From: Podarcis gaigeae
Lineage: Eukaryota
Assembly: GCA_964106915.2 (NCBI GenBank)
Contig: OZ066918.1
Direction: 5' to 3' (one strand)
DNA: 64,000 nucleotides
Shown here piece after piece: positions 17,740-64,000 of the stretch. Both the position numbers and the translations under genes were made by a program. The notes beneath the pieces were generated by a model. That model was not told where the DNA came from, did no database searches, and saw nothing but the letters and a program-made list of their open reading frames with translations. The first letter of the stretch is position 1. Each line of letters starts with the position of its first letter.

Positions 17740-19121
17740 GTTGTTGTTGTTGTTTAATCGTTTAGTCATGCCCGACTCTTCGTGACCCCATGGACCAGAG
17801 CACGCCAGGCACTCCTGCCTTCCACTGCCTCCCGCAGTTTGGTCAAACTCATGTTGGTAGCTTTGAGAACACTGTCCAACCATCTCGTCCTCTGTCGTCC
17901 CCTTCTCCTTGTGCCCTCCATCTTTCCCAACATCAGGGTCTTTTCCAAGGAGTCTTCTCTTCTCATGAGCTGACCAAAGTATTGGAGCCTAAGCTTTAGG
18001 ATCTGTCCTTCCAGTGAGCACTCAGGGCTGATTTCCTTCAGAATGGATAGGTTTGATCTTCTTGCAGTCCATGGGACTCTCAAGAGTCTCATCCAGCACC
18101 AGAATTCAAAAGCATCCATTCTTCAGTGATCAGCCTTCTTTATGGTCCAGCTCTCACTTCCATACATCACTGCTGGGAAAACCATAGCTTTAACTATACA
18201 GACCTTTGTTGGCAAGGTGATGTCTCTGCTTTTTAAGATGCTGTCTAGGTTTGTCATCACTTTTCTCCCAAGAAGCAGGCGTCTTTTAATTTTGTGATTG
18301 CTGTCATCATCTGCAGTGATCATGGAGCCCAAGAAAGTAAAATCTCCCACTGCCTCCATTTCTTCCCCTTCTATTTGCCAGGAGGTGATGGGACCAGTGG
18401 CCATGATCTTTGTTTTTTTGATGTTGAGCTTCAGACCATATTTTACGCTCTCCTCTTTCACCCTCATTAAGAGGTTCTTTAATTCCTCCTCACTTTCTGC
18501 CATCAAAGTTGTGTCATCTGCATATCTGAGGTTGTTGATATTTCTTCCAGCAATCTTAATTCCGGCTTGGGATTCATCCAGCCCAGCCTTTCGCATAATG
18601 AATTCTGCATATAAGTTAAATAAGCAGGGAGACAATATACAGCCTTGTCATAAAGGTAAAGGTACCCCTGCCTGTATGGGCCAGTCTTGCCAGACTCTAG
18701 GGTTGTGCGCTCATCTCACTCTATAGGCCGGGAGCCAGCGCTGTCCGCAGACACTTCCGGGTCATTTGGCCAGCGTGACAAGCTGCATCTGGCGAGCCAG
18801 CACAGCACACGGAACACCGTTTACCTTCCCGCTGGTAAGCAGTCCCTATTTATCTACTTGCACCCGGAGGTGCTTTCGAACTGCTAGGTTGGCAGGCGCT
18901 GGGACCGAACAACGGGAGCGCACCCCACCGCGGGGATTCGAACCGCCGACCATACGATCGGCAAGTCCTAGGCGCTGAGGTTTTACCCACAGCGCCACCC
19001 GTGTCCCTACAGCTTTGTCATACTCCTTTCCTAATTTTGAACCAATCAGTTGTTCCATATCCAGTTCTAACTGTAGCTTCGTGTCCCACATAGAGATTTC
19101 TCGGGAGACAGATGAGGTGAC
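17740..19121 (-). mobile_element. BovB (RTE clade) LINE, 5'-truncated, interrupted by a Sauria SINE
   Basis: RT peptide LSPCLFNLYAEFIMRKAGL...NLRYADDTTLMAESEEELK...SLEKTLMLGK, typical of BovB; (CAA)n tail; 11-bp TSD CATTTTTCTAT at 17729-17739 and 19122-19132; in-frame TGA at 18123-18125. Confidence 0.95.
18653..19007 (-). mobile_element. Sauria SINE (Squam1), full length
   Basis: GGGACACGGGTGGCGCTGTGG head, box B GGTTCGAATCC, (ACCTTT)n tail; 15-bp TSD TACAGC(C/T)TTGTCATA at 18638-18652 and 19008-19022. Confidence 0.93.
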
Positions 19122-23850: not shown

Positions 23851-24767
23851 GAATTAGAATACCAAGAATACAATTATAGATTCTAGTATACCTCATATAC
23901 ATATACCACCTTTTCCCATCAGTAGATTCCAAGGCAATGAACAAGTACGGATAATGAATGGTAAAACATCCCTAGATACCAAACACACACTGAAAAGCAG
24001 CTGTGTTGGTCTGCAAAGTCCAGTATAAAGGTGATCGTGTTTCTTTCTACAGCTTTTCCCCTAGCCAGGAACCTGCGTATTTTGCTTAAGGCGTGAGGCA
24101 GAACTGTGTAACAGCTGGGCTTTGTGTTTTCCAAAAATGGGGGATCAGCCATAGCCCAGAACCCTAGGTGTAACATAACACATATTCAGTCTTCAACCTC
24201 CAATTTCTGACTGAATCTAATTAGAAACCTCAAGGCTTTAATTATTTCTTGTAAAAAAAATAATGCAACAACCTCCCCACATTCTCTTCCTGCTTTGTGT
24301 AACAACACACCTGAAGACATCTTATGCATCATTTTGTGACATTTTGGTTGTTCCTAATAAATATGTTGCTCAACAGTGGGCTTTAAAATAAACCATTTAT
24401 ACTACGTAGTGATGCAAAATCAGATTCTGTCTTCTCCTTAATAAATATGTAATAACTCAAGAGTTATTATAGATAGCTGCTTTATTTTCTTCTCCAGAGG
24501 GCTTATTTGTCTGACCTCAAAGATTATAATTATGGCCAATCCCATAAGCATATGCAACTCACTTAGACCGTGACTGGCTTTCTCACTTCAATTTGGAGTT
24601 TCATTTTGGATACACACATATTTGATTGTGTGGAATGCATTCTAAGTAATTACAGTGATTTGTGTTAGTGTGAAAGACTTCAAAAAATTGGGGAACAGGT
24701 TTGTGCTAGAGCAAGGAGCATGTTCAGTCTCTAATGTAACATGAACTTATTCTGATATTTCCTATAT

Positions 24768-25033: not shown

Positions 25034-26311
25034 TCCTATATCAACCACACACAAGTAGATATAGGTGTTGAGATGAAACAGGTGAGAGAGATGCAAATTC
25101 AGCCATGGTTGGCTCATTTTCTTATATTTCTTAATGCACCATGACAAAGGGTACCAGCTAAGAAATCAGCCCTTTCACAATTGATCTCCTCTCCAGTCCT
25201 TTCATTGATTGTCAGTGTTAAGAATGTAAGGGGAGCTGGATCAGGCCAGTGGTCCATCTAGTCCAGCATCCTGTTCTCAACAATGGCCAATCAGATGCCT
25301 GTGGGAAACCAGCGAGAAGGAGTCAAGCACCAGAACACTAGGAAGTGTTAGGAAATGGCCAAATTCATTTTTTAACGGTGTGTGTTTTTATTATTTTTTT
25401 TCCCAGTATAACATAAAAGCACAAGAAGCCCCCATCCAATAAACCTAATCCTTTCTCTCTTCATGAGAATAAAATGCAAAAGTTAGCAAAAGAACACAAA
25501 GAATGTGTTCTTGGGCCTTGTTCTGAACTAGGAAGAAACTTACCTCTGTAAACAAGTTGGTATACTCAGGCTGGGTAATTATTAGGGGTCAGAAGAAAAC
25601 CAAAAAAGTTACTGAAATGACTGAATTTAGCTTTTCAGAATGCAAACCTTGGGAGTCTTGAGCACTTGGTATTCCCCTGAGGAAATATCATGCAGCAAAG
25701 TGGAATGGCTTCTGAAATCTTAATATTAGATTGTTTGTTTCTCAGCTGCCACACTATGTTTCTTTAGAAAGCTATGTATTTAGTCTGGTTATGGTGCTAT
25801 TACATTTGAGTGTTTATATTGGGGCTGTATTCATATAATCCTGGGAATCAAATGCCACTATGTTGTTCTTGGTTTTTGTTTGAAAATCAAATTAGTACAA
25901 TAACATCACAGAAGAAAGTCTAGCAACATTAGGCAAAGTCAGTTTGTCACGTCAGTTCAACATAGTGATGTGTGATTTTCACCAGCAGAACATGTGCTAT
26001 CCTTAGAGCTCTTAAAGGACAGTATGGAATATTACCAACCCCATTTGGAAACAACTTCCTGTCAAGCAGTTGTTTCTATAAGAAGATTCCATGTGTGTCA
26101 GTTCTAACGGCAGAACAAGCTGGTTTCTTGTAGGCTACTGGGCTCTAGGAGTGCGGTATCATGATTTGCTTCCTACTCAACTACAACTCACAGGTAGGAA
26201 CTTCTTAAAGAAATGACAGGAAGTGGTCGTCTGTTTCCTTCTCTGACCTTGGCTGAAGGAATGAGAAATAGCAATAATGAGGAATGGTTTGAGACTCCCT
26301 GTTAAGACTGT

Positions 26312-26349
26312 GTATCTGAAGAAGTGTGCATGCACACGAAAGCTCATAC
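26312..26349 (+). ncRNA. Minimal type I hammerhead ribozyme motif
   Basis: Stem I GTAT/ATAC; core CTGAAGA (26316-26322) plus one extra A; stem II GTGTG-CATG-CACAC; GAAA (26338-26341); palindromic AGCT mini-stem III; predicted cleavage after C26345. Confidence 0.75.
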
Positions 26350-26449
26350 CAAGAACTAACTTAGTTGGTCTTTAAGGTGCTACTGGAAGGGAAAAAAAAT
26401 TATTTTTTTGTTTTGACTATGGCAGACCAACACGGCTACCTATCTGTAA
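26314..26449 (+). mobile_element. Penelope-like element terminal-repeat fragment
   Basis: CTGAAGAAGTGTGCATGCACACGAAAGCTC...GTTGGTCTTTAAGGTGCTACTGG...AACACGGCTACC; flanked by the 15-bp direct repeat CTGTTAAGACTGTGT (26299-26313 / 26450-26464). Confidence 0.8.
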
Positions 26450-27491
26450 CTGTTAAGACTGTGTTCATGGAAGGCAATCTTACTCAGCTACGAGTGATCA
26501 CCAAAGAAGATAAGAGCACAAGGGAGGGAGGTGTTCATGGTGAGTTCCGGCACCTCTTTTTCTAGAAAAACAGTGCTGAGTAAGAGTTACCAGTTTACAC
26601 CCGCAGACAGTGTTTTGGTATGCTAAGTGAACATACTGAGAGGGACAATTACTTTCAACACAAGGAAAGATAACCCCAGCTGCAATTCAGTCTGAATTCA
26701 ATGAATAAATAATTCTGTGAATTCTCAGTGTAATTATTTAATCATGTTGGCTGCCCTCTCCTCCCCTCTAACTCAAACTAAAGTTTCCTATGATGTTGTG
26801 GAGTCTGCTGGGGGAAAGGTAGTTCTGTAGGTAGGTAGGTCATTTGGTATTGCTCAGTGAACTGTAAAGAGATCAGCACACAGACGTACCACACCCCAGC
26901 TATTGATGTGTGTACCTCCTAAGAAGCACACTTCAGAAGATTAAACTGAAATAATTTAAGAGATTTCACTTTTGGCTACAAAACCAGAAGCAACTAGAAG
27001 GCAAAGATTAATGGACATTTATATAAACACCTTTCTGCACCAAAAGAAACCTTCTCAGTTTAATGATGTGCAGCCACAGTTCTATTAAGGGAAACCTGGG
27101 CTGTTCTTTAAGACTGGCTCCAAAAAGCAGTAAATTTTATGTGTTTGACCAAGATGGGAAGCTTCATTTTTGTTTCTGTGCAGTTAACATCTGAGTTTTG
27201 TCAACCACACAAAGAGACTTGGGAAAGTATTTACTCATCCCAAGTCTCCTGTTTTAATTGCTGTGTTGTTTTAATGGAACTGCTTTACTTCCTTTATTTA
27301 AATTATGGATGTTTATATTTTAATGTTTTAATAGGATTTAATTAAATTATGGATGCTTATGTGTTAATGTTTGTGCCATTGACTTTTATACTTGTAAACT
27401 GCTTAGAAGCCTATTTTGGCAGTAAGAGGTATATCAGTAAAATAATAATAATTATATCACCAACCCACTATTCCTTGTTGCTCTATAAAAT

Positions 27492-27789: not shown

Positions 27790-29821
27790 ACGTTGGGCTT
27801 GTTTGCAGATGACCTGGTATTAACATTACAGGAGCCTGTCTCTAGTACTAAAAGAGTGTTAGAATTAATTTCGGACTTTGGTCGGGTGGCGGGATTTAAG
27901 CTGAACAAGCAAAAAACTAAGGTTATAGCAAAAAATTTGACAAGTACAGAAACAGATGAGTTTGTGAAAGAAACAGAATTAAATGTGGTTAAAAAAGTAA
28001 AATACCTAGGGGTGTATCTGACCTCCAAAAATTTGAATCTGTTTAAGGACAACTACGAGAAATGTTGGTTAGAAATCAAAAGAGATTTGGAAACATGGTC
28101 AAGATTGAAACTTTCCTTGTTGGGCCGAATAGCAGCTATAAAGATGAATGTATTGCCAAAAATGCTATTTCTGTTTCAGACCCTACAGGTCGTGGACAAG
28201 GTGGAATGCTTTGGAAAGTGGCAGAGGGATATTTCTAAGTTTGTTTGGCAGGGCAAAAAGCCCCAAATAAAGTTTAAGATACTAACTGATGCGAAAGAAA
28301 GAGGGGGATTTGCCCTGCCAGACTTGAGGTTATATTACGAAGCTGCAGCCTTCTGCTGGTTGAAAGATTGGATTTTACTGGAAAACACTGATGTCCTAGA
28401 TCTGGAAGGGTTTGACAATGCTTTTGGGTGGCATGCATATTTGTGGTATGACAAGGTTAAAGTGCACAAATTGTTTAAAAACCACATTGTCAGGAGAGCA
28501 ATTTTAATGGTCTGGACAAAATATAAAGACTTATTGGAGAGTAAGACTCCGAGGTGGCTCTCACCGGTGGAGGCCAAGGCACGTAAGAGACCTAATATGG
28601 AAGCCAATTGGCCTAAATATGGGGAAATTATTGAAAAGATTGGAGACAATTGGAGGTTGCAGAGCTTGGAAAAACTAAAAAACAAGGTGCGAGATTGGTT
28701 GCATTATGCACAAATTCAAGAGGTCTTTAAAGTAGATAACAAGGTTGGATTCCAGGTGGAAAAATCGAAACTAGAGACAGAATTGTTAGAACCAAAAAGT
28801 AAACTACTTTCGAGAATGTATAACCTGCTGCTTAAATGGAATACCCAGGATGAGACAGTCAAATCCGCCATGATAAAGTGGGCGCAGGATTTGGGGCATA
28901 ACATTATGTTCGAAGACTGGGAAAGGTTATGGAACACCGGAATGAAATTTACGGCATGTAGTGCCTTGAAGGAAAACATTATGAAAATGATATACCGGTG
29001 GTACATGACCCCAGTCAAGCTTGCTAAGATATATCACCTGTCTGATAATAAATGTTGGAAATGTAAAGAGGCGGAAGGGACATTCTTTCACCTTTGGTGG
29101 ACCTGCCCGAAAGTGAAGGCCTTCTGGGAAATGATTCATAATGAACTAAAAAAGGTACTGAGATTTACCTTACCTAAGAAACCAGAGGCCTTCCTTCTGG
29201 GCATGGTGGACCGGAGAGTGTTTAAGAAGGACAGAACTTTTTTTATGTATGCCACTACAGCAGCAAGGATTTTGATTGCAAAATATTGGAAGACACAAGA
29301 TTTACCCACACTGGAGGAATGGCACACGCAGTTGGTGGACTATATGGAACTGGCCGAAATGACTGGCAGAATCCGAGACTTGGGAGAAGAAACATTCGAG
29401 GAGGATTGGAGAAAATTTAAAGACTATTTGGAAAAACATTATAAGTTGTATGAATGTTAAAAAACGCACCTTTTAGGAAATTCTAGCTTCAGTAATGTTA
29501 AATTAAAGAAATGGAAATTAAGGTACAAGAAGTCAGAGATAGAATAATGAAACAACTTTATTGTGTTAAAATGAAAATGTACATGATTTGGGGTATAATA
29601 CATTTGAAATTGGGTAACATGATAAAAAGGAAGATACAATAAGTATTGAAATAAGTTAACAAATTGCAGACGTTATGTATGTTGGGAGGACGTGGGGAAG
29701 TCCAACAGATTTGGAAAAAAGAGTAAGAAAAATTTGTAACTTTTCTTTTTTACTTTTATAACACGTTCTTTATTCTTTTTTCTGTATTTTATAAAACTAA
29801 TAAAAAATATTATTAAAAAAA
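27790..29821 (+). mobile_element. L1 LINE, 5'-truncated, young copy
   Basis: ORF2 C-terminal half, 3' UTR, AATAAA (29799-29804) and A-rich tail. Confidence 0.93.
27793..29460 (+). CDS. L1 ORF2 remnant (RT C-terminal part plus CCHC zinc knuckle), 555 open codons, no genuine start
   Basis: FADD catalytic motif, KYLG, GGFALP, and CWKC-x8-H-x4-C (CWKCKEAEGTFFHLWWTC); the frame begins at the truncation point. Confidence 0.9.
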   Translation: MGLFADDLVLTLQEPVSSTKRVLELISDFGRVAGFKLNKQKTKVIAKNLTSTETDEFVKETELNVVKKVKYLGVYLTSKNLNLFKDNYEKCWLEIKRDLETWSRLKLSLLGRIAAIKMNVLPKMLFLFQTLQVVDKVECFGKWQRDISKFVWQGKKPQIKFKILTDAKERGGFALPDLRLYYEAAAFCWLKDWILLENTDVLDLEGFDNAFGWHAYLWYDKVKVHKLFKNHIVRRAILMVWTKYKDLLESKTPRWLSPVEAKARKRPNMEANWPKYGEIIEKIGDNWRLQSLEKLKNKVRDWLHYAQIQEVFKVDNKVGFQVEKSKLETELLEPKSKLLSRMYNLLLKWNTQDETVKSAMIKWAQDLGHNIMFEDWERLWNTGMKFTACSALKENIMKMIYRWYMTPVKLAKIYHLSDNKCWKCKEAEGTFFHLWWTCPKVKAFWEMIHNELKKVLRFTLPKKPEAFLLGMVDRRVFKKDRTFFMYATTAARILIAKYWKTQDLPTLEEWHTQLVDYMELAEMTGRIRDLGEETFEEDWRKFKDYLEKHYKLYEC

Positions 29822-39369: not shown

Positions 39370-40525
39370 TTTAGATTGGGAGAACCTGGTTTGCCAGCAA
39401 ATCACCTGAAAAGTACCTTGAGATTGCATTTGACCAGAAGCTGGTGATTCCTGCATTGCAGGGGTTTGGACCAGATAACCTATCCAACTCTACAGTTCTG
39501 TGATATGGCTGCATGAAAAACACAGAATGATTTTAGGCTGCATTAACAGAGCCATAATTTCCATGATCTGGGAAATAATAGTTCTGTTTCTATTCTGCAC
39601 TAATCAGACTCCATCTGGAGTACTGTGTCCAATTCCGGATGTCACTCTAAGTTTGAGGACAACTCAGATTGGGTTCAGAGGAGGGCAATGATATAAAAAA
39701 CAGCTGTATGAAAACTATGTTCAGTGGTACAGAAAACAAGTCCTATGAAAGAATCAGAATCAGAATAGCATTGATTGAGTTAGTACATAGACCATAGCAG
39801 AAGGTTGAAAGAAATGTGTTTGTTTAGGTTGGAAAAGAAAAGTAGGGGGGGGGGGAGCTAAAATATGATAGCACCCTAAAGGTAAAAGGTAAAGGTACCC
39901 CTGCCCGTACGGGCCAGTCTTGACAGACTCTGGGGTTGTGCGCCCATCTCACTTAAGAGGCCAGGGGCCAGCGCTGTCCGGAGACTCTTCCGGGTCACGT
40001 GGCCAGCGTGACATCGCTGCTCTGGCGAGCCAGAGCCGCACACGGAAACGCCGTTTACCTTCCCGCTGGTAAGCGGTCCCTATTTATCTACTTGCACCCG
40101 GAGGTGCTTTCGAACTGCTAGGTTGGCAGGCGCTGGGACCGAGCAGCGGGAGCGCACCCCGCCGCAGGGATTCGAACCACCGACCTTTCGATCGGCAAGT
40201 CCTAGGCACTGAGGCTTTAACTCACAGCGCCACCTGCGTCCCTCCTGATAGCACCCTACAAATACCTAAATGGCAGTCCTATCAAAAAGGACAAAGACTT
40301 GTTCCCTGATGACCTAATGGAATTAAGTCACTTTTTTTGTTAAACCTGAGGGAAATTATCTTCATAGTAAGAGAAGTTTGTCACTTGTTATCTAAAGGAG
40401 TTGTGAGTTCCTCTTCAGTGGAGGTCTTCAAACAGAGTCAGGTCAGATATCTGTTGGGGATGATCTAATTGACTTTCCTGGGTCAATCAGGGCCCAGAAG
40501 ACCCCTCCATCCCAATGATTTTATG
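39370..40525 (+). mobile_element. Old CR1 LINE 3' portion, interrupted by SINEs
   Basis: MILGCINRAI and CATCTGGAGTACTGTGTCCAATTC (LEYCVQF) CR1 ORF2 motifs; GGAGGTCTTCAAACAGAG 3' region. Confidence 0.8.
39879..40242 (-). mobile_element. Sauria SINE (Squam1), full length, nested in CR1
   Basis: Highly similar to 18653-19007; 13-bp TSD TGATAGCACCCTA (39866-39878 / 40246-40258). Confidence 0.93.
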
Positions 40526-42537: not shown

Positions 42538-42630
42538 ATGCAACAAAGAATCTTGTGGCACCTTCAAGACTAACAAATTGAATTGTAGCCCTGGGGATGA
42601 GAGCCCACATTATCAGATGCATATCTTCAG
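42538..42630 (-). mobile_element. Degraded Penelope-like remnant
   Basis: Minus strand GCATCTGATAATGTGGGCTC...TTTGTTAGTCTTGAAGGTGCCACAAGATTCTT. Confidence 0.6.
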
Positions 42631-48059: not shown

Positions 48060-49160
48060 AAATTGAAAGTTCCAGGTTAATAAGAACTAGCTGTTACATT
48101 CTGAATTAGTTGTAGTTTCTGAGTTACCTTCAAAGGTAGCCACACGTAGTGTGCATTGCAGTAGTCCAAGTGGGATATAACCAGAGAATGTACAGTGGTA
48201 CCTCGGTTTTTGAATGCCTCCGTAGTCGATTGTTCCAGAACTCAAACCCTGAAAACCCAGAAGTAAATGCCTTTGTTTTTGAACGCGTCTCAGAAGTCGA
48301 ACAGGAAACACAGCTTCCGTTTTGAGTTTTCCATATTGGGGCTTCTGTCTTGAGGCTTCTGCTTTCAGTTTTTGGTTTTCGAACGTTTCGGAACTCAAAC
48401 GGACTTCTGGAATGGATTATGTTTGAAAACCAAGGTACCACTGTACCACTCTGGTGAGGCAGTATGTAGGCAGGTAGCAGCCAGAATATCAGATGCAGCT
48501 GGTAGACAGCCACCCTGGACACAGAGTCGACCTGTGCTTTGATGGATAGCTGTGAGTCCAAAATGACCACAAGGCACCTGGTTCTTAAGGGGCACTGTCA
48601 CCCCCATTCAGAACTAGGGAGTCCCCACACCCTGTCCCCAAGAAACAATACTTCTGTTTTGTTGGGATTCCATGGACTGCCACCCATCCTCCACCTGCCT
48701 CTAGACACCCACACAGGATGCTCAGTGCCTACACCGGTTCCAGTTTAAACTAGGGGTAGAGCTGGGTATCTTCTGCATATGGGGGAACACTCAGCCCAAA
48801 CTGCCTGATGATCTCTGCCATGGTTTCATATAGAGGGGGAGAGGACAGAGCCCTGAGGCACTCCAGAGGTGAGCACCTAGGGGCCCGAACACTCATCCCC
48901 CGACACCACCTTCTGGACACAGGAGGAAGGAGTGGAACCACTGCATAACAGTGCCCCCAACTCCCAACCCTTCTAGGTGGTCCAGAAAGATACCGTGCTT
49001 GATGGTATCAAATGATGCTGAGAGATCCAGCAGAACAAGAAAACAACTTTCACCTCTGTCCCTAGCCTGCTGGAGATCATCAATGAGTGTGATATGGGCA
49101 GTTTCCAATCCATGGTGGAGCCTGAAACCTGATTGGAAAGGATCCAATCTCTCTCCAGGG
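48060..49160 (-). mobile_element. L2 LINE RT fragment
   Basis: LDPFQSGFR..GLETA..LVLLDLSASFDTI, YAEDTQLY (YADD equivalent), VILDSQLS..QVDSVSR; frameshifted. Confidence 0.9.
48193..48443. mobile_element. Tigger-like MITE nested in L2
   Basis: CAGTGGTACCTCGGTTTT / AAAACCAAGGTACCACTG TIRs, TA TSD. Confidence 0.9.
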
Positions 49161-52100
49161 AGCCATGCCTGGTTCCATGTAAACACTTTGCTCTTTACCC
49201 AGGGGTTTGATTCATAATTTGAAGGGTTTGGGGCATTAGTGGCCTCTTTCAGTGGGGTGGGACCTGAACAAAAATAGTAAAACATTATAACAAACATCTG
49301 TGTTTATCTGTGTTTTTAGGTATTGTTTGTTATAATGTTTATACTATTTTTGTAAGTTGCTTTGGGTCACTTTCGTAAATGAAACAACCAAATGATAATG
49401 ATGTTGATGTTGATGATGATGATGATGATGATAATAATATAGGTGATGGGAGGTGATAATATGGTACAACAAGCATGTTTTTACGTCATAGTAGGTAAAT
49501 CCCTCATCAGAGAGTCCACAGAGGGCACCCTGGTGTTAGTGGGACTAAATAAAAGACGTGGCCAGTGAATCACACTGTGTTGGTGCAGACATAGAAGAGT
49601 GCAATGGGGCATGTGCCAGCAGAATCGTTTTATTATTAGGCCATTAGCCACTTTGTAAAATTTCACCGAAGACAATAAATGAGCCATCACTAAAAACTGA
49701 AATAGGAAAATGCTTTATAGATGGGCCATTAGGTGGTGAGTAGAGAAGTCGGTGTATTTGGATACAAGCCATTTTAGTCCCACTAAATTTAGCAGTAGGT
49801 TTTATAGGAATCACAGAACTGTCAAGGAGAAGGGCCTGAAGATCATCCAGTCTAATTCTCCCCCATCATGCTCACACGTTCCTAAGCAGGTTTGCCTGCT
49901 CCCAGCGAAAGAATATAGCATCTTAATCTACTTAGTCTACTCTGTTAAAAATTGCAAAAAAAAAAAAAAGCAGCAAGGTGAACTGTTCCAGATGTGTCTG
50001 TGGGATAAGCTACACATTTAATAGAACTGCAAAGATGGTTGAAGTATGTGAATCAGCAATATGGCACAAGTGAATGCAAATGGGAGGGGGGAAGAGAGAG
50101 AGAAATGTTTCATCTGTGTTGATTGGAAGAAGAATAGAAAACCATTTTGCACCCAGCCATATAGTGGCCAGTTGAACTCTGAGGATGCTGATTTATTGAG
50201 CCACTCTCCTTGTCCCCCTCTTTCTCTCTCTCCAAAAATGCAGTTCTGCAAGGTTGAGATTGTGTTTCTTAATCGTGATAAAAGGCATCTCTCTAAGCGG
50301 TACATGCTTAGAAATACATGTTCTTTCATGCTGCTTGAAGCCAGCTGGGTTTGACAGCTCTTCTTTCTGATATGAATCGATCCTACCCTCACCCTTGTTC
50401 CTTTACTGGGGTTTTTCTTTGGGGCGGGGGAGATTAAAAGGTAGTTCCTTGAGTGATGTGAAAAAATAGGTTATTTCCCCCTCATTAATACAGAGAACAC
50501 ATCTTCTGTGAAGGCAAAGATAAATGGGAGGCAATGTATGATATTTGCAATCCACGTGTTTCAGATACAATGAAACTTGCTTAAGGCAACTTCCAGCATG
50601 GTTGTAGAAAACCTTATACTTAGACCTAGCAAAATACTCCCAACACAGCTTTTTCTCACCATTTGCAAATGCTAGCTGTGATACCAGATACAAAATATAT
50701 TTTCCATCCTACGTTCAAGAAATTTTCAAACTCATGTACATACTAATTTCCAAAGCTTTTCTGTAGGAAATGTTTACTATTGGAGGAACAGCTTTTTTTT
50801 AAAAAAAAAGGGATAATCATACAGTATCATATATGAAAAATATGTTTGCTTGTTTATTTTATTTATGTACCACTTTTGACTCCATAGTGTGCAAGTGCTG
50901 TACTGGTATGATAATCAAAAGTACTCCCTGGAATAGCCAGTGATATGCTACAAAATGTATTAGGGCTACTCCAAGTATTCACAGTTTTTGATATATGTAA
51001 ATCTACAAATTGCAGCAACATTCACCTTTTCTAAACCTATTGTTCACCGATATTGTTTCTGTGATATGTTGCTTTGGTGCTGTTTTCTTTTTCTGAGAAT
51101 TGGGTGATCCCAATCAATCAGGGATCACATACTGAATGGGATGGTGTCATGACAAAACATGGCAAATCAGATTATGGATATGTGCTGACATTTCTGAGGG
51201 CAAATGAAACAACTTTCAGAAAGCATCAAAAAGATGGAAATAAGTTGAAAACAACCACATAGTTATCCGTTGCTTTTATCCCTTTTATCCATTGCAGAGG
51301 GAATGGTACACAACCACCCTGTTGTGCAGGTCACTTGTATCACCCTATTGCAGAAACAGTTTCAGTGAACAATACGGTTGGAAAAGGTGGATTTTAATTT
51401 TTTTAATAATTAGTGGATTTATTGAATTCCCCATAAAAATCCCCCATACTTCCCAGGCAGCAGCAAAGATCAACCTACTTAAACGGCCTTCTCAAACCAA
51501 ATCTTGCATTCAGTGTCAAACAGAAGTCTCACATTTTATTGGCTTGTTCTTATTCCATAGGATGCTGAAGCCTCATGCTCTACTAATAAAGAAGTTTTGC
51601 AGATCAAGAAGTGCCCAAGTTAAGACAGGGATGACTGTCCTTGATGTTAATTTAATGCTGCCCCCCTCGACCACAGGCTCAGTTAACATACACAACACTG
51701 CTGGTCATGACTTGTTGAAAGTATTTGTGAAAAGCACCTTTTGGGCTAAGTCAAAAAGATGAAACCTCACATAACTGATGCTCCACGTGAAAACGAAATA
51801 AAGCAAATCCCTGCTGACAGAATACTAGCAGGGAAGAGAGAGAAATCTAATCTATAACTCTTCTAAATGAAATCTAGTTTTCTAGGTGCAGGGATTTATG
51901 TCTTTGATGTGGTACGGCCTGGATACAAAATCTCCCCCAAGAGAGAACTAAACATTTCATTGAATGAGAGGGAGGGAAGGTTGACACTGAATAAGCTAAA
52001 AATAAATACAAAGAATCTCCAAGTCATCATATTTTCACTAAAGTCATGACTAGGGAGCTCATTTCAAGCTTGCTGACTCTGTGACTCGTGGTATTTTTCA

Positions 52101-59700: not shown

Positions 59701-62459
59701 GCCATTGGGAACACTTAATTATTGTTTCTGAAGAAGATAGATAAGTTAAAGGTTTGGGGGTTGGCCGATTTGGAATGTAACTGGAAAAGATAATAGTGGC
59801 TACTAGTGGGTTCACATAGTCTACAATTCTATTTGCATTTGCCACCTGAAGTAATCACCATTCAACACAATAGATTTCTTTTTCTAAGTAAATCTTCATA
59901 GGATTGGACTACTAGTTGGATTCAAGGATCAGGAAACTTGGGCCTACCACATGTTCCCACACTTCCCAGATTTGGATGTTTGGGGGTTTATGTCATGCTA
60001 CAGATCTTTCACTATTGCTCTAAAATGGAATGCATTCATCATCTATGTTTGGAAGAAGCCAGAAACCTTGTTTGTGTCTTGGAGCCATGTTAAATGGAGG
60101 TCCCATGGAAAGTGCAGGCTTGCTCTAGGCATACTTAAAATGTCACCTTTTGCTTCGTATCTCTCTTAATATTATTTGGTGTGCAGCAAGTCAAGAATGG
60201 GCCTGTGAGGAGATAAAGTATTGCAAATGGAGCAGAATTGCAGAGCATTGCCCTTATCCCACTAGCAACATCTCCCACTGTTCTGCCCTGAGGCAAAGCA
60301 GTGCAAGGCTCAGACTGTGCTCAAGGACTACAGAACTGCAAAAAAAAACAAACACAAAAAAAACTGAGACTGAGCTTTCTATAGTAGCAACAGCTGCATC
60401 CCAATTGTTACCTCTGCCTGTGCTGAAAGATGTTTCTTTAAAGGGATTCAGCTTGCTCTAGTAGTCTCCTACTGCGGCGGAGAAGGAGATCCTATTGCCT
60501 CATTTGCCTTCTGTGATAAAGTCCTTGATGTTTCTGTGTGGCACAGCTACAACCTCATCCAGTGGAAGAGCTTTTGTGGCTGTCACAGTTATGTCCTTCT
60601 CTTTATGGTCCAGAGTTCTCATCCCCTGGAGAAGGGGACTCAGACACCAGGTGTCTGACACCTGCGTCATGAGGTGCCTGTCTTCAATGTAGCAATAGGA
60701 TTGGTGGTATATAAGATACCACACACACAAAAGACTGATTGGGCCTGTCTTCTAAACAAGCCATTGCCAAGAACCAAGGAGGCAATGGCAGACACAGACT
60801 TATGTGCCTTTCTTTTTCTCTCTCAGTCTAATGTGTATGTTTGCTTCTCCAAAAGCAAATTTAATAGTTAAACTATTTTGTAGAATGAAGAAAAAGACAT
60901 TGTCTACAGTCAGATTTATTAACAAGCTGGTTTCTAACATTTCTCAGTACATATAAAACAAACCAGACAACTGTAGGGAGAGCATAGGAAACCTAAACGG
61001 AACTCACAACCACACAGCAATTGAATCATTCAATTTTAATATAGTGATTAAATTCAACTATGATATACAGCTCTTATTTATAAAGTGCACAGCATTCCCC
61101 AAGAAAGACCATGTAGGTCTGAACTACATTGGTGTAAGATATTTTCTGAAAATCACATAACTCAATGCAGTGTCATACGCAAGACCTGCGTTCATAACTA
61201 AGGACTCAGCTATACAGCTGCATGTAAATAAAATGTTTTAAGTGTGTTGTAAAGTGCATTATACAAATGTGACACTATATGGCGATGGTGAGCTATGACA
61301 AATTCAATATATTTTTCAAAACACTTTTAAAAAAAGCATTTTCATAATATTTTTTTATATGTGTCTAGATTCTACCTAAGTGTCTAGATTCTACCTGGAT
61401 CATGAGTGGTCCAGAATTCCTCCTTCACTTGGAGGAGCTCTATGTACATATGTCACCCTACAAAAATACATTACAATAATTTGAAGAATGTGACTGGAGG
61501 GCACTAGACAAAGCTTGGAGAAGGTTACAGACACATAAATTCATCAAGCAGATGCTCAGCATTTAGGGAATCTCATCCACAAGGCAGGACCCAACTTTAT
61601 TTTGAGAAATTTACTTTGCTTACTGAAGCAAAGCCACAGGTTGTTAGAGGAGAGAATAACTATGGGAGATGCTTTTAGCCTGAGATGAAGTATTAAGTGA
61701 CCAAACAATGCAGAATGAATTTGCTAAATTGGTTGACATGCTGCCTAAAATGGATATTGTTTTATTTGGATTGCTTGCAGCAGTTTAGCATGAGCTTAAA
61801 TAATTTATTTCCTGTTTATGACTTTAAAAGAGGTTTTTCTAAATATTAGCATGTGAAACAAAAAAGCTAATTTTTCACGAGCGATTTCTAACAGCAGTTA
61901 AGCCCTCCAGTGCATTCCAGGAAAAATAATGCTTTATTTTGATTCAGTTCTCTTCTTATTCCTGAACATGTTGGGTGGGGAAGCCACTTTTAATGACTGA
62001 AAGCCAAATGTACTTCCTTTCATTGCTCTGTTGCAAAAGAGGTTGATGGGTATTTGTTGGAGGAGATTGACTGGATAAATTTTTGGCAAGAGAATTTATT
62101 CCATCTTCCAACTGGCTCTTGGGACATCGTCCTATCTAGTGAGGTTGCAACTGGAGAATCCCAGATCTGAAAATTATCAGCACTTGTTTGAATCAAGCCA
62201 TCACAAGCAGCCATTTATTTTTGACTGTTCTGATTCCAAATGAACTGCAGCAGAACAAAGCATGTTTTTATTTCTATATTTAAAGCTGCCTTTTAGAGAA
62301 AATTCGTTAAGCCAGCCTTGCTTAACCCAATGCCTTCTTGGTGTTTTGGGTGGAATCTACACACATATGAAAAACACTGTGAAAACACTTTTAAAAAAAG
62401 TTTTGAAAAATACATTGAATTCTGCATAGCTCACTGTCAACATCTAAACACAATTTAAA

Positions 62460-62554
62460 AATTCCTTCCAGTAGCACCTTAGAGACCAACTAAGTTTGTC
62501 ATTGGTATGCATGCACACTTCTTCAGATACACTGAAACAGATGTCACCAGACCC
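62460..62554 (-). mobile_element. Penelope-like fragment with deleted hammerhead core
   Basis: Reverse complement matches 26310-26390 apart from a few substitutions and the loss of CACGAAAGCTCA. Confidence 0.8.
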
Positions 62555-64000
62555 ACCACCCAGTGTCACATTTGTATATTGTGATTTGCAACACATTTAA
62601 ATTGTTTTATTTGCAGCTGTGTAGAGGCCTTGGACCACAATTCCCATCACAACTGTGCTGGCTGGGGCTGATAGGAATTATAGTCCAAAACATTTGGAGT
62701 GTACCAGTTCGGGCAAGGGTGCATTACACAGAAGCTTACATAAAACATCAATATACAGAATGTGAGCATATAAAACACAATATCACACTTACCAAAAGCA
62801 ACCATTTAAAACTATTATAATAATATTATGATACATTTTAGTATAATGCTACAATATTTTATACTAAATAGTGACTGTATTAACAAAAATGCTGAACAAC
62901 TGATCTTCTTTGTCATCTTTGTCTTTCTTAAATCCCAGTGTTGCTAATTAGCTGATAAAATTACTTGTTGGATTTTATACTGAGTCGGCAGGAATATAGG
63001 CCACTTGTGATGTGTGTGTTGGGAGCATTTATTTTATTTTATTTTTTAAAAAGAGCAGACTATGAATTCCTAGCTGGTAAAACTGAACATCAGTCATTAC
63101 CATAGCCCTGCCTCCAAGGCGCCGCTTCCTTTCCATCCATATGTCAGGTCTCCGTTCTCTTCTCTGGGGTTATGTTCCTGTGATTTGCTCATTTATTTTC
63201 CCTACAAACCAATAATAAGCCCAATAACAGCAAGGGAGAGATGACAGTGGTTCTATCTGTCTTTAAATCTTTGCCTCCATAATTACTCTGACTTGTAGAG
63301 ATACTGTCCTTAAGTTTAAATTCAGAATCAGCAGAAAAACAGCCGTTTCCCATTTGCAGTCGGCCACAATGAATGATTGGAATAGGTATAAAAATCACTT
63401 TCTGCTTTATGATGTGTGGATTAATGAAAGTATTAAACCATTCTAAATGATAGATAAGGAAATTATTTCCACTGTAGCTTGAAAGAAATAAAACCACTCT
63501 GTCTTAAATTAAAGAGCCTTAAAAGTTTGCCAGCTCATCAAAAGTACATGGCCACCAAAATGGGGGCAAGTTTATCACCATTTATGGATCACCTTAATTT
63601 TTTAACATTCATCATTTTTCTGCTTCATTACTGTTAGTGTTTCCCATCAACTTCAAGAAACACACTAATTTCTGCACAGAAGAAGAGTAAATATGAGTCG
63701 GGCTAATATGGTTTTATGAGGAGAAAGAAGATTTACCCATTTTATTAGCATTTTGCGCTATTAATTTTATTTCATTGACATTGTTGTCTTCATTGAGAAA
63801 GTCTCTCTGACTGGAAGAGCATTAATTTATGACATTTAGAGATTCAGACAGAAGCTGAGTTCAGTTAGAGATGCCTGTATGAGAGGTGTTTGTGAACACA
63901 TGGGCTTGAGTATAGCATTTTGCATGAACATATGCATGTCCACCTGAATGTGAATATTTTGTACTTGCTTTGATATATACAGACCAAATAAAGCAATAGA

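Follow-up and report, generated by a model that had tools for sequence, protein, structure and literature searches.

The 136-bp insert at 26314–26449 of the Podarcis gaigeae stretch analysed here (64,000 nucleotides, hereafter the window) carries a minimal hammerhead motif. In the reading that we favour, with somewhat better than even confidence, it is a dead run-off copy of the 5' end of an uncleaved transcript of a Penelope-like element (PLE), reaching from an internal reverse-transcription start to the transcription start. The ribozyme motif is of a known type and this single copy probably does nothing; the point of interest is the 5' end shared by the family. The features on which the analysis relies are the following.

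26299–26313, plus strand: left 15-bp direct repeat (target-site duplication, TSD), whose final 4 bases belong to the element as well (microhomology), from repeat comparison, RNA reads and the second copy
26450–26464, plus strand: right copy of the direct repeat
26314–26449, plus strand: 136-bp insert belonging to a high-copy family, its 3' end lacking a poly(A) tail
26312–26349, plus strand: minimal type I hammerhead with a 4-bp stem I, the core, an extra A, a 5-bp stem II and a palindromic AGCT replacing stem III, from descriptor, fold and the architecture of a turtle motif
26345–26346, plus strand: predicted cleavage site, after C17 (26345), from position numbering
26350–26449, plus strand: segment from the ribozyme to the shared 3' end, whose end near 26449–26450 is the putative reverse-transcription start, from 161 RNA reads
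26453–26510, plus strand: older host repeat, entered by the insertion at its edge (49 of 58 positions identical in the paralogue 31182–31125)
62464–62554, minus strand: second, decayed copy with a 12-bp deletion in the ribozyme, retaining 22 bases upstream of the equivalent of 26310 (62532)

The initial annotation had described an insert of about 136 bp between 15-bp direct repeats, and both figures were borne out: 26299–26313 and 26450–26464 are identical over 15 bp, no extension of the match is possible, and the insert measures 136 bp. Only one other pair of 15-mers spaced 40–400 bp apart occurs in the whole 64-kb window. The left repeat ends in GTGT (26310–26313), which matches element sequence, as seen in the second copy and in RNA loose ends at 26310. 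As GTGT is present in the second copy, the microhomology at the junction amounts to 4 bases and, since many RNA reads depart only behind 26450, the true duplication is 10–15 bp and the insert 136–141 bp.

The family was studied in public sequencing runs, among them X2, X4 and X12 (DNA, contigs) and X22 and X24 (RNA reads). In X2 (organism A) and X4 (organism B) the contig of the left flank covers the first 20–21 bases of the insert, but in X12 (organism E) it ends at 26313 and is followed by 8 different letters. The data suggest an empty site in organism E, where no contig bridges the two flanks under the 31-letter rule. An insertion into a coding exon was considered and rejected, as the frame across the empty site runs into stops within about 60 codons and consists of repeat DNA in its right half.

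In the hammerhead motif, stem I is formed by GTAT and ATAC (4 bp), and the core CTGAAGA (26316–26322) is followed by one additional A (26323). Stem II, formed by GTGTG and CACAC (5 bp) and closed by the loop CATG, precedes GAAA, GC, T and C17 at 26345. A minimal-hammerhead descriptor identified this as the single site on both strands of the 64 kb, and none of 100 first-order Markov resamples contained a site, which confirmed the complete core, both stems and the AGCT reported in the initial annotation. The loose core pattern without stems matched 7 times against 5.8 expected, which is chance level, and consequently the signal resides in the stems. The fold stability of the motif was not above that of shuffles (z −0.44 to −0.52). 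The motif presents the core CUGANGA, GAAA and UH with helices I and II of PLE minimal hammerheads, and also the additional base after position 9, the G10.1–C11.1 pair and the palindromic 15.2/16.2 bases. The previous assignment to a Penelope-type minimal hammerhead inside a TSD-flanked insertion is supported. The comparison with Rfam that had been proposed as a check gave zero hammerhead matches, either at E up to 10 (25800–27000) or at the gathering score (whole window), and no tRNA or 5S match over the same two ranges. This negative result, which the initial annotation had listed as refuting, does not refute the motif, because it fits the published minimal descriptor.

The description of the motif as self-cleaving, and as a conditional cleavage site of the transcripts crossing it, is not supported for this copy. 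The motif is a monomer without stem III, which can only be formed with a second copy, and the nearest close one is 36 kb away, on the opposite strand and with 12 core bases deleted. Folding of two molecules gave −11.1 kcal/mol for the active-type dimer and −30.6 kcal/mol for the best structure, held by 14-base stem II palindromes. In published work, monomers of this minimal kind showed no cleavage and dimers were cleaved weakly (PMC4209133), the Anolis PAc ribozyme cleaves only with the protein of the element (PMC11167929), and cleavage was found in one of nine Xenopus dimers (10.64898/2026.07.22.740005). The ribozyme of this copy is thus probably inactive and likely a passenger, and cleavage of a host RNA at 26345 is unlikely, the motif being a lone monomer. 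Cleavage with the help of a protein or in trans could still take place.

The insert belongs to a very abundant family. Its summed contig depth peaks at 1.7–2.3 million, against 11–14 in the unique flank, in the three DNA runs. This puts the family at some 4,000 to 200,000 copies, according to how many overlapping words are counted, with the caution that contig depth is not a copy number. In X24 (RNA, about 12 in 100 reads used, another organism code) the unique flanks were at zero depth. The 161 RNA reads that depart behind 26450 enter mixed sequence (agreement 0.59), and the 3' end shared by the family lies 104–105 nt past the cut site. Upstream of 26310, 302 X24 reads continue in one sequence that matches the second copy, and this shared sequence means that the element extends beyond the insert; about 52 bases of it were seen. 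Common variants within the element, at 26357 and 26372, reach 25–48% of depth. Adjacent to the insert on the downstream side, a short repeat of very high copy number (26525–26570) showed a strong strand bias in X24.

The 5' ends of the family were examined through depth profiles along the second copy, whose 12-bp gap biases which reads align. Contig depth per word was 72–82k downstream and 10–18k for words reaching 11–22 bases upstream, and the ratio of upstream to downstream depth was 0.22 in X2 and 0.14 in X12, the upstream level being flat across those 11–22 bases. Unitigs were then simulated, under a guess at the rules of the aligner and without contig simplification. For the four depth ratios the best fit was a point start at 26312 ± 3, in 80% of copies for X2 (log error 0.11–0.17) and in 90% for X12 (0.18–0.22); starts shifted by −10, +10 or +20 bases fitted worse. 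Two other candidates, that all copies start at the cut site and that all copies are long, were discarded for their poor fit. Raw RNA reads of X22 decreased by 58% within the 10 bases that span the start and by 21% within the following 10, and bulk RNA of X24 showed a small step (25% and then 15%); the RNA reads contained no position where many molecules begin. Among the joints listed (12 of 37 in all), 9 re-enter the element at 26308–26312 without upstream element letters, an observation weakened by the fact that homology of the reference also ends in that region. Taken as modelled estimates, these indirect data support that about 80–90% of ribozyme-bearing copies start within a few bases of 26310, and the depth profiles, simulations and joints agree in this with the earlier proposal that 5' ends would cluster at the ribozyme.

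Opposite-strand joints inside the insert were found in three contigs of other copies, two of the three listed having an arm at 26312–26315 (26312/26411 and 26315/26352); the copy at 26299–26464 has no inverted partner. Inverted 5' junctions are described as typical of PLEs in PMC8557442. In addition, in X4 and X12 joints from 26372, 26384 and 26390 to 26312 were 5–8 times as deep as a single copy, and could represent head-to-tail ribozyme units or inverted pairs.

The second copy includes an initiator-like TCAGT within its upstream bases, with the A at 62533. It sits within another repeat (62346–62624), of which an intact inverted paralogue lies 1 kb off (61210–61379). Other resemblances were observed in the window. 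An older decayed relative of the ribozyme plus downstream segment, with a broken core, is at 42622–42555 on the minus strand (local score 36, against at most 27 in 200 shuffles). The 3' end of the insert is weakly matched at 24040–23990, minus strand, where an old and very short copy may lie (score 36, against at most 29 in shuffles), and an 18-bp tandem of 2.6 copies resembling the 5' half of the ribozyme at 1391–1436 is unestablished, its score being 32 and that of the best shuffle 31.

Longer copies contain TATATATA (TATA) at −30 to −23, as seen in contig loose ends behind 62554 (30 and 26 contigs). They also contain, 20 bases after the TATA, the initiator-like TCAGT, with its A at the equivalent of 26309. 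From this arrangement we infer that the A would be the RNA polymerase II start of a pLTR promoter and, by position, the insert would begin at +2 to +6 of the predicted transcription start. The hammerhead, fixed 3' end, TSD and absence of poly(A) are features of EN+ PLE terminal repeats, and the longer copies add, as judged from sequence, the putative pLTR promoter motifs. The source element is likely to be Penelope-like; it is known here from its ribozyme, TSD, 3' end and the upstream bases mentioned above, within which no RT (reverse transcriptase) or GIY-YIG endonuclease gene of the kind carried by full-length EN+ PLEs was linked to the family.

The origin that we propose would be as follows. 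RNA of the element would start at the pLTR initiator, which would place a reverse-transcription start site about 140 nt from its 5' end. The reverse transcriptase (RT) would prime at nicked DNA and start internally on uncleaved RNA, by analogy with Anolis PAc. Synthesis would run off the 5' end of the RNA and yield a strong-stop-like cDNA, which would be integrated as a TSD-flanked stub, its 5' end being joined through the 4-base microhomology. According to PMC11167929, the Anolis PAc RT primes at nicked DNA, starts 111–118 nt into the ORF and uses mostly uncleaved RNA, and a shortened RNA 5' end leads to shorter products. The template was uncleaved, since the insert retains 32–36 bases 5' of the cut site, and the stub is likely dead because it has neither a TATA box nor any ORF. 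The broader proposal, that strong-stop cDNA is the dominant product in this reptile PLE family and that most of its copies are complete records of the span from the cap site to the internal RT start, we hold at even chances. If true, the genome itself maps the transcription start of the element, the ribozyme is not cut while insertion takes place, and long copies arise only by read-through or by a jump between templates. Two reports describe PLE copies as 5'-truncated (PMC8557442, PMC8969392), and the literature searched, with subscription papers, Repbase and Dfam outside its scope, contained no description of 5' ends clustered at the transcription start or of a strong-stop PLE product.

Other origins of the shared 5' end were weighed. 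The insert could belong to a separate, short, non-autonomous SINE-like family, in which one or a few 140-bp masters are transcribed alone and depend on a PLE protein for their mobility. The high copy number and the fixed ends would agree with it, as would the accounts of non-autonomous PLE partners such as MRC1 (PMC8557442) and of pLTR sequences being sufficient in trans (PMC3846280). However, 10–22% of copies share one upstream sequence with a TATA box that is absent from short copies, and the common variants at 26357 and 26372, although not phased with copy length, suggest that there were several source lineages. The initial annotation had suggested a distinct family of this kind. The non-random 5' end that it anticipated is present, but a TATA box and an initiator-like motif at the cluster point account for the common end without such a family, which we consider unlikely. 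Ordinary random 5' truncation, with the start at the ribozyme being a coincidence or an artefact of aligning reads to a short reference, would be in keeping with PLE copies being usually 5'-truncated and solo, as stated in PMC4209133 and PMC8557442. A steady loss of 2.5% per base gave an error of 0.20–0.28 in X2, near the best overall, with a ribozyme-bin ratio of 0.40–0.43 against 0.61. However, none of five steady rates suits both references, the X12 error being at least 0.53 (0.53–0.59 at 2.5% per base), and the flat upstream depth, the read step in X22 and the joints re-entering at 26308–26312 also argue against it. This explanation seems to us slightly less likely still.

The shared 5' end might also be a site of RNA processing or stalling, that is, a splice acceptor or a point where the RT falls off at the foot of stem I. 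In the second copy TTTCAG ends at the equivalent of 26310, and PMC4209133 places the end of a D. virilis PLE intron at the 5' end of helix I. Nevertheless, spliced RNA would carry an upstream exon, whereas the best-supported RNA loose end, among those listed, is genomic upstream sequence; and an RT moving 3' to 5' should stop at the 3' base of the hairpin (26349), which fitted the simulation poorly. Both variants together appear quite improbable. We regard as very improbable that the insert stems from a tandem non-LTR retrozyme, as a solo monomer for which a self-cleaved circular RNA was the template. Vertebrate retrozymes are derived from pLTRs and occur as solo monomers, with a mean reptile consensus of 176 bp (10.64898/2026.07.22.740005), and a few joints at several-fold depth could be head-to-tail. 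However, there are no tandem hammerhead units at the locus, the ends of the insert are away from the cleavage site, and stem I has 4 bp and not the canonical 6.

If the run-off origin from a PLE transcript is correct, a short PLE consensus of this kind does not have to represent a non-autonomous family of its own. With a sharp 5' end at a TATA–initiator site, thousands of stubs would become a testable map of the RNA start, and such an end speaks against cleavage as the step that sets the inserted template. Transcription and copying of PLEs and the role of their hammerheads are presented as open questions in PMC8557442 and PMC11167929.

The window as a whole is repeat-rich vertebrate DNA with three RT fragments from other retroelements. 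Domain searches in 88 of the 141 stop-to-stop ORFs of at least 75 aa, a threshold that misses short exons, found no host gene domain, and only RT fragments and weak membrane matches. At 27790–29460 (plus strand), 1.3 kb downstream of the insert, there is an unbroken frame of 556 codons that encodes a LINE-type RT in its C-terminal part (RVT_1, weak hit), which we take to be probably a young, 5'-truncated L1/Tx1-like copy. The RVT_1 fragments at 17766–18647 and 48896–49303 (minus strand) are presumably RTE/BovB-like and L2/CR1-like, respectively. The segment 18652–19008 is repeated at 39885–40243 (90%).

Beyond the window, an exact 26-mer had 0 metagenome matches, and a degenerate core pattern was found at 13 metagenome, 0 viral and 6 prokaryote loci. 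Of these only L002 resembles the insert, over 39 motif bases; neither RT nor GIY-YIG was detected in 16 ORFs from 5 of the 19 loci, and no relative was found in the viral, metagenome and prokaryote collections. Minimal-hammerhead-like motifs were observed in metagenome loci at L008:277–304, L009:277–304 and 1357–1384, and L002:3001–3029, with no RT in the ORFs scanned; the two motifs of L009 are in opposite orientation, about 1.05 kb apart.

Comparison with known systems indicates that the closest published minimal hammerhead, which has the same architecture, is that of the turtle Chrysemys (PMC4209133). It likewise has a CUGAAGA core plus one additional base, G10.1–C11.1, a 4-bp stem I and a 5-bp stem II, and the sequences of stems I and II differ from those of the insert by paired changes. 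The turtle example bears no ORF-linked mark, and the text available describes no shared 5' end of solo copies. The minimal hammerheads of metazoan PLE pLTRs also share the palindromic AGCU, C or U at position 17 and mostly solo dispersed copies (PMC4209133). Non-LTR retrozymes, similarly, carry a type I hammerhead and are pLTR-related, non-coding and found as solo monomers, but they are defined by tandem units, whereas the insert is single, TSD-flanked and not bounded from cut to cut (10.64898/2026.07.22.740005).

Regarding the promoter, the pLTR of Adineta vaga Pen2a likewise has the TATA TATATATA 20 bp ahead of an initiator-like motif and shares TSDs, inverted 5' copies and solo pLTRs with the present family (PMC3846280). 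However, its copies contain the promoter and measure 181–218 bp, whereas the insert lacks the TATA, and its solo pLTRs are ascribed to recombination or deletion. In D. virilis Penelope the promoter is internal and TATA-less, with a start well upstream of the ribozyme (PMC2377424), and as this layout differs, that of TATA and initiator near the ribozyme is not general. Finally, Poseidon PAc of Anolis carolinensis, whose report concerns 3' ends and not a 5' cluster, likewise has a fixed 3' end, which follows the ribozyme at a distance of about 100 nt, and an ATG inside the ribozyme, as the insert does (PMC11167929). Unlike in Poseidon PAc, the frame opened by the ATG of the insert stops after 9 codons. 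The distance from the cut to the 3' end is 104–105 nt in the insert and 85–92 nt in Poseidon PAc. Poseidon PAc uses mainly uncleaved RNA as template, and the same is proposed for the insert.
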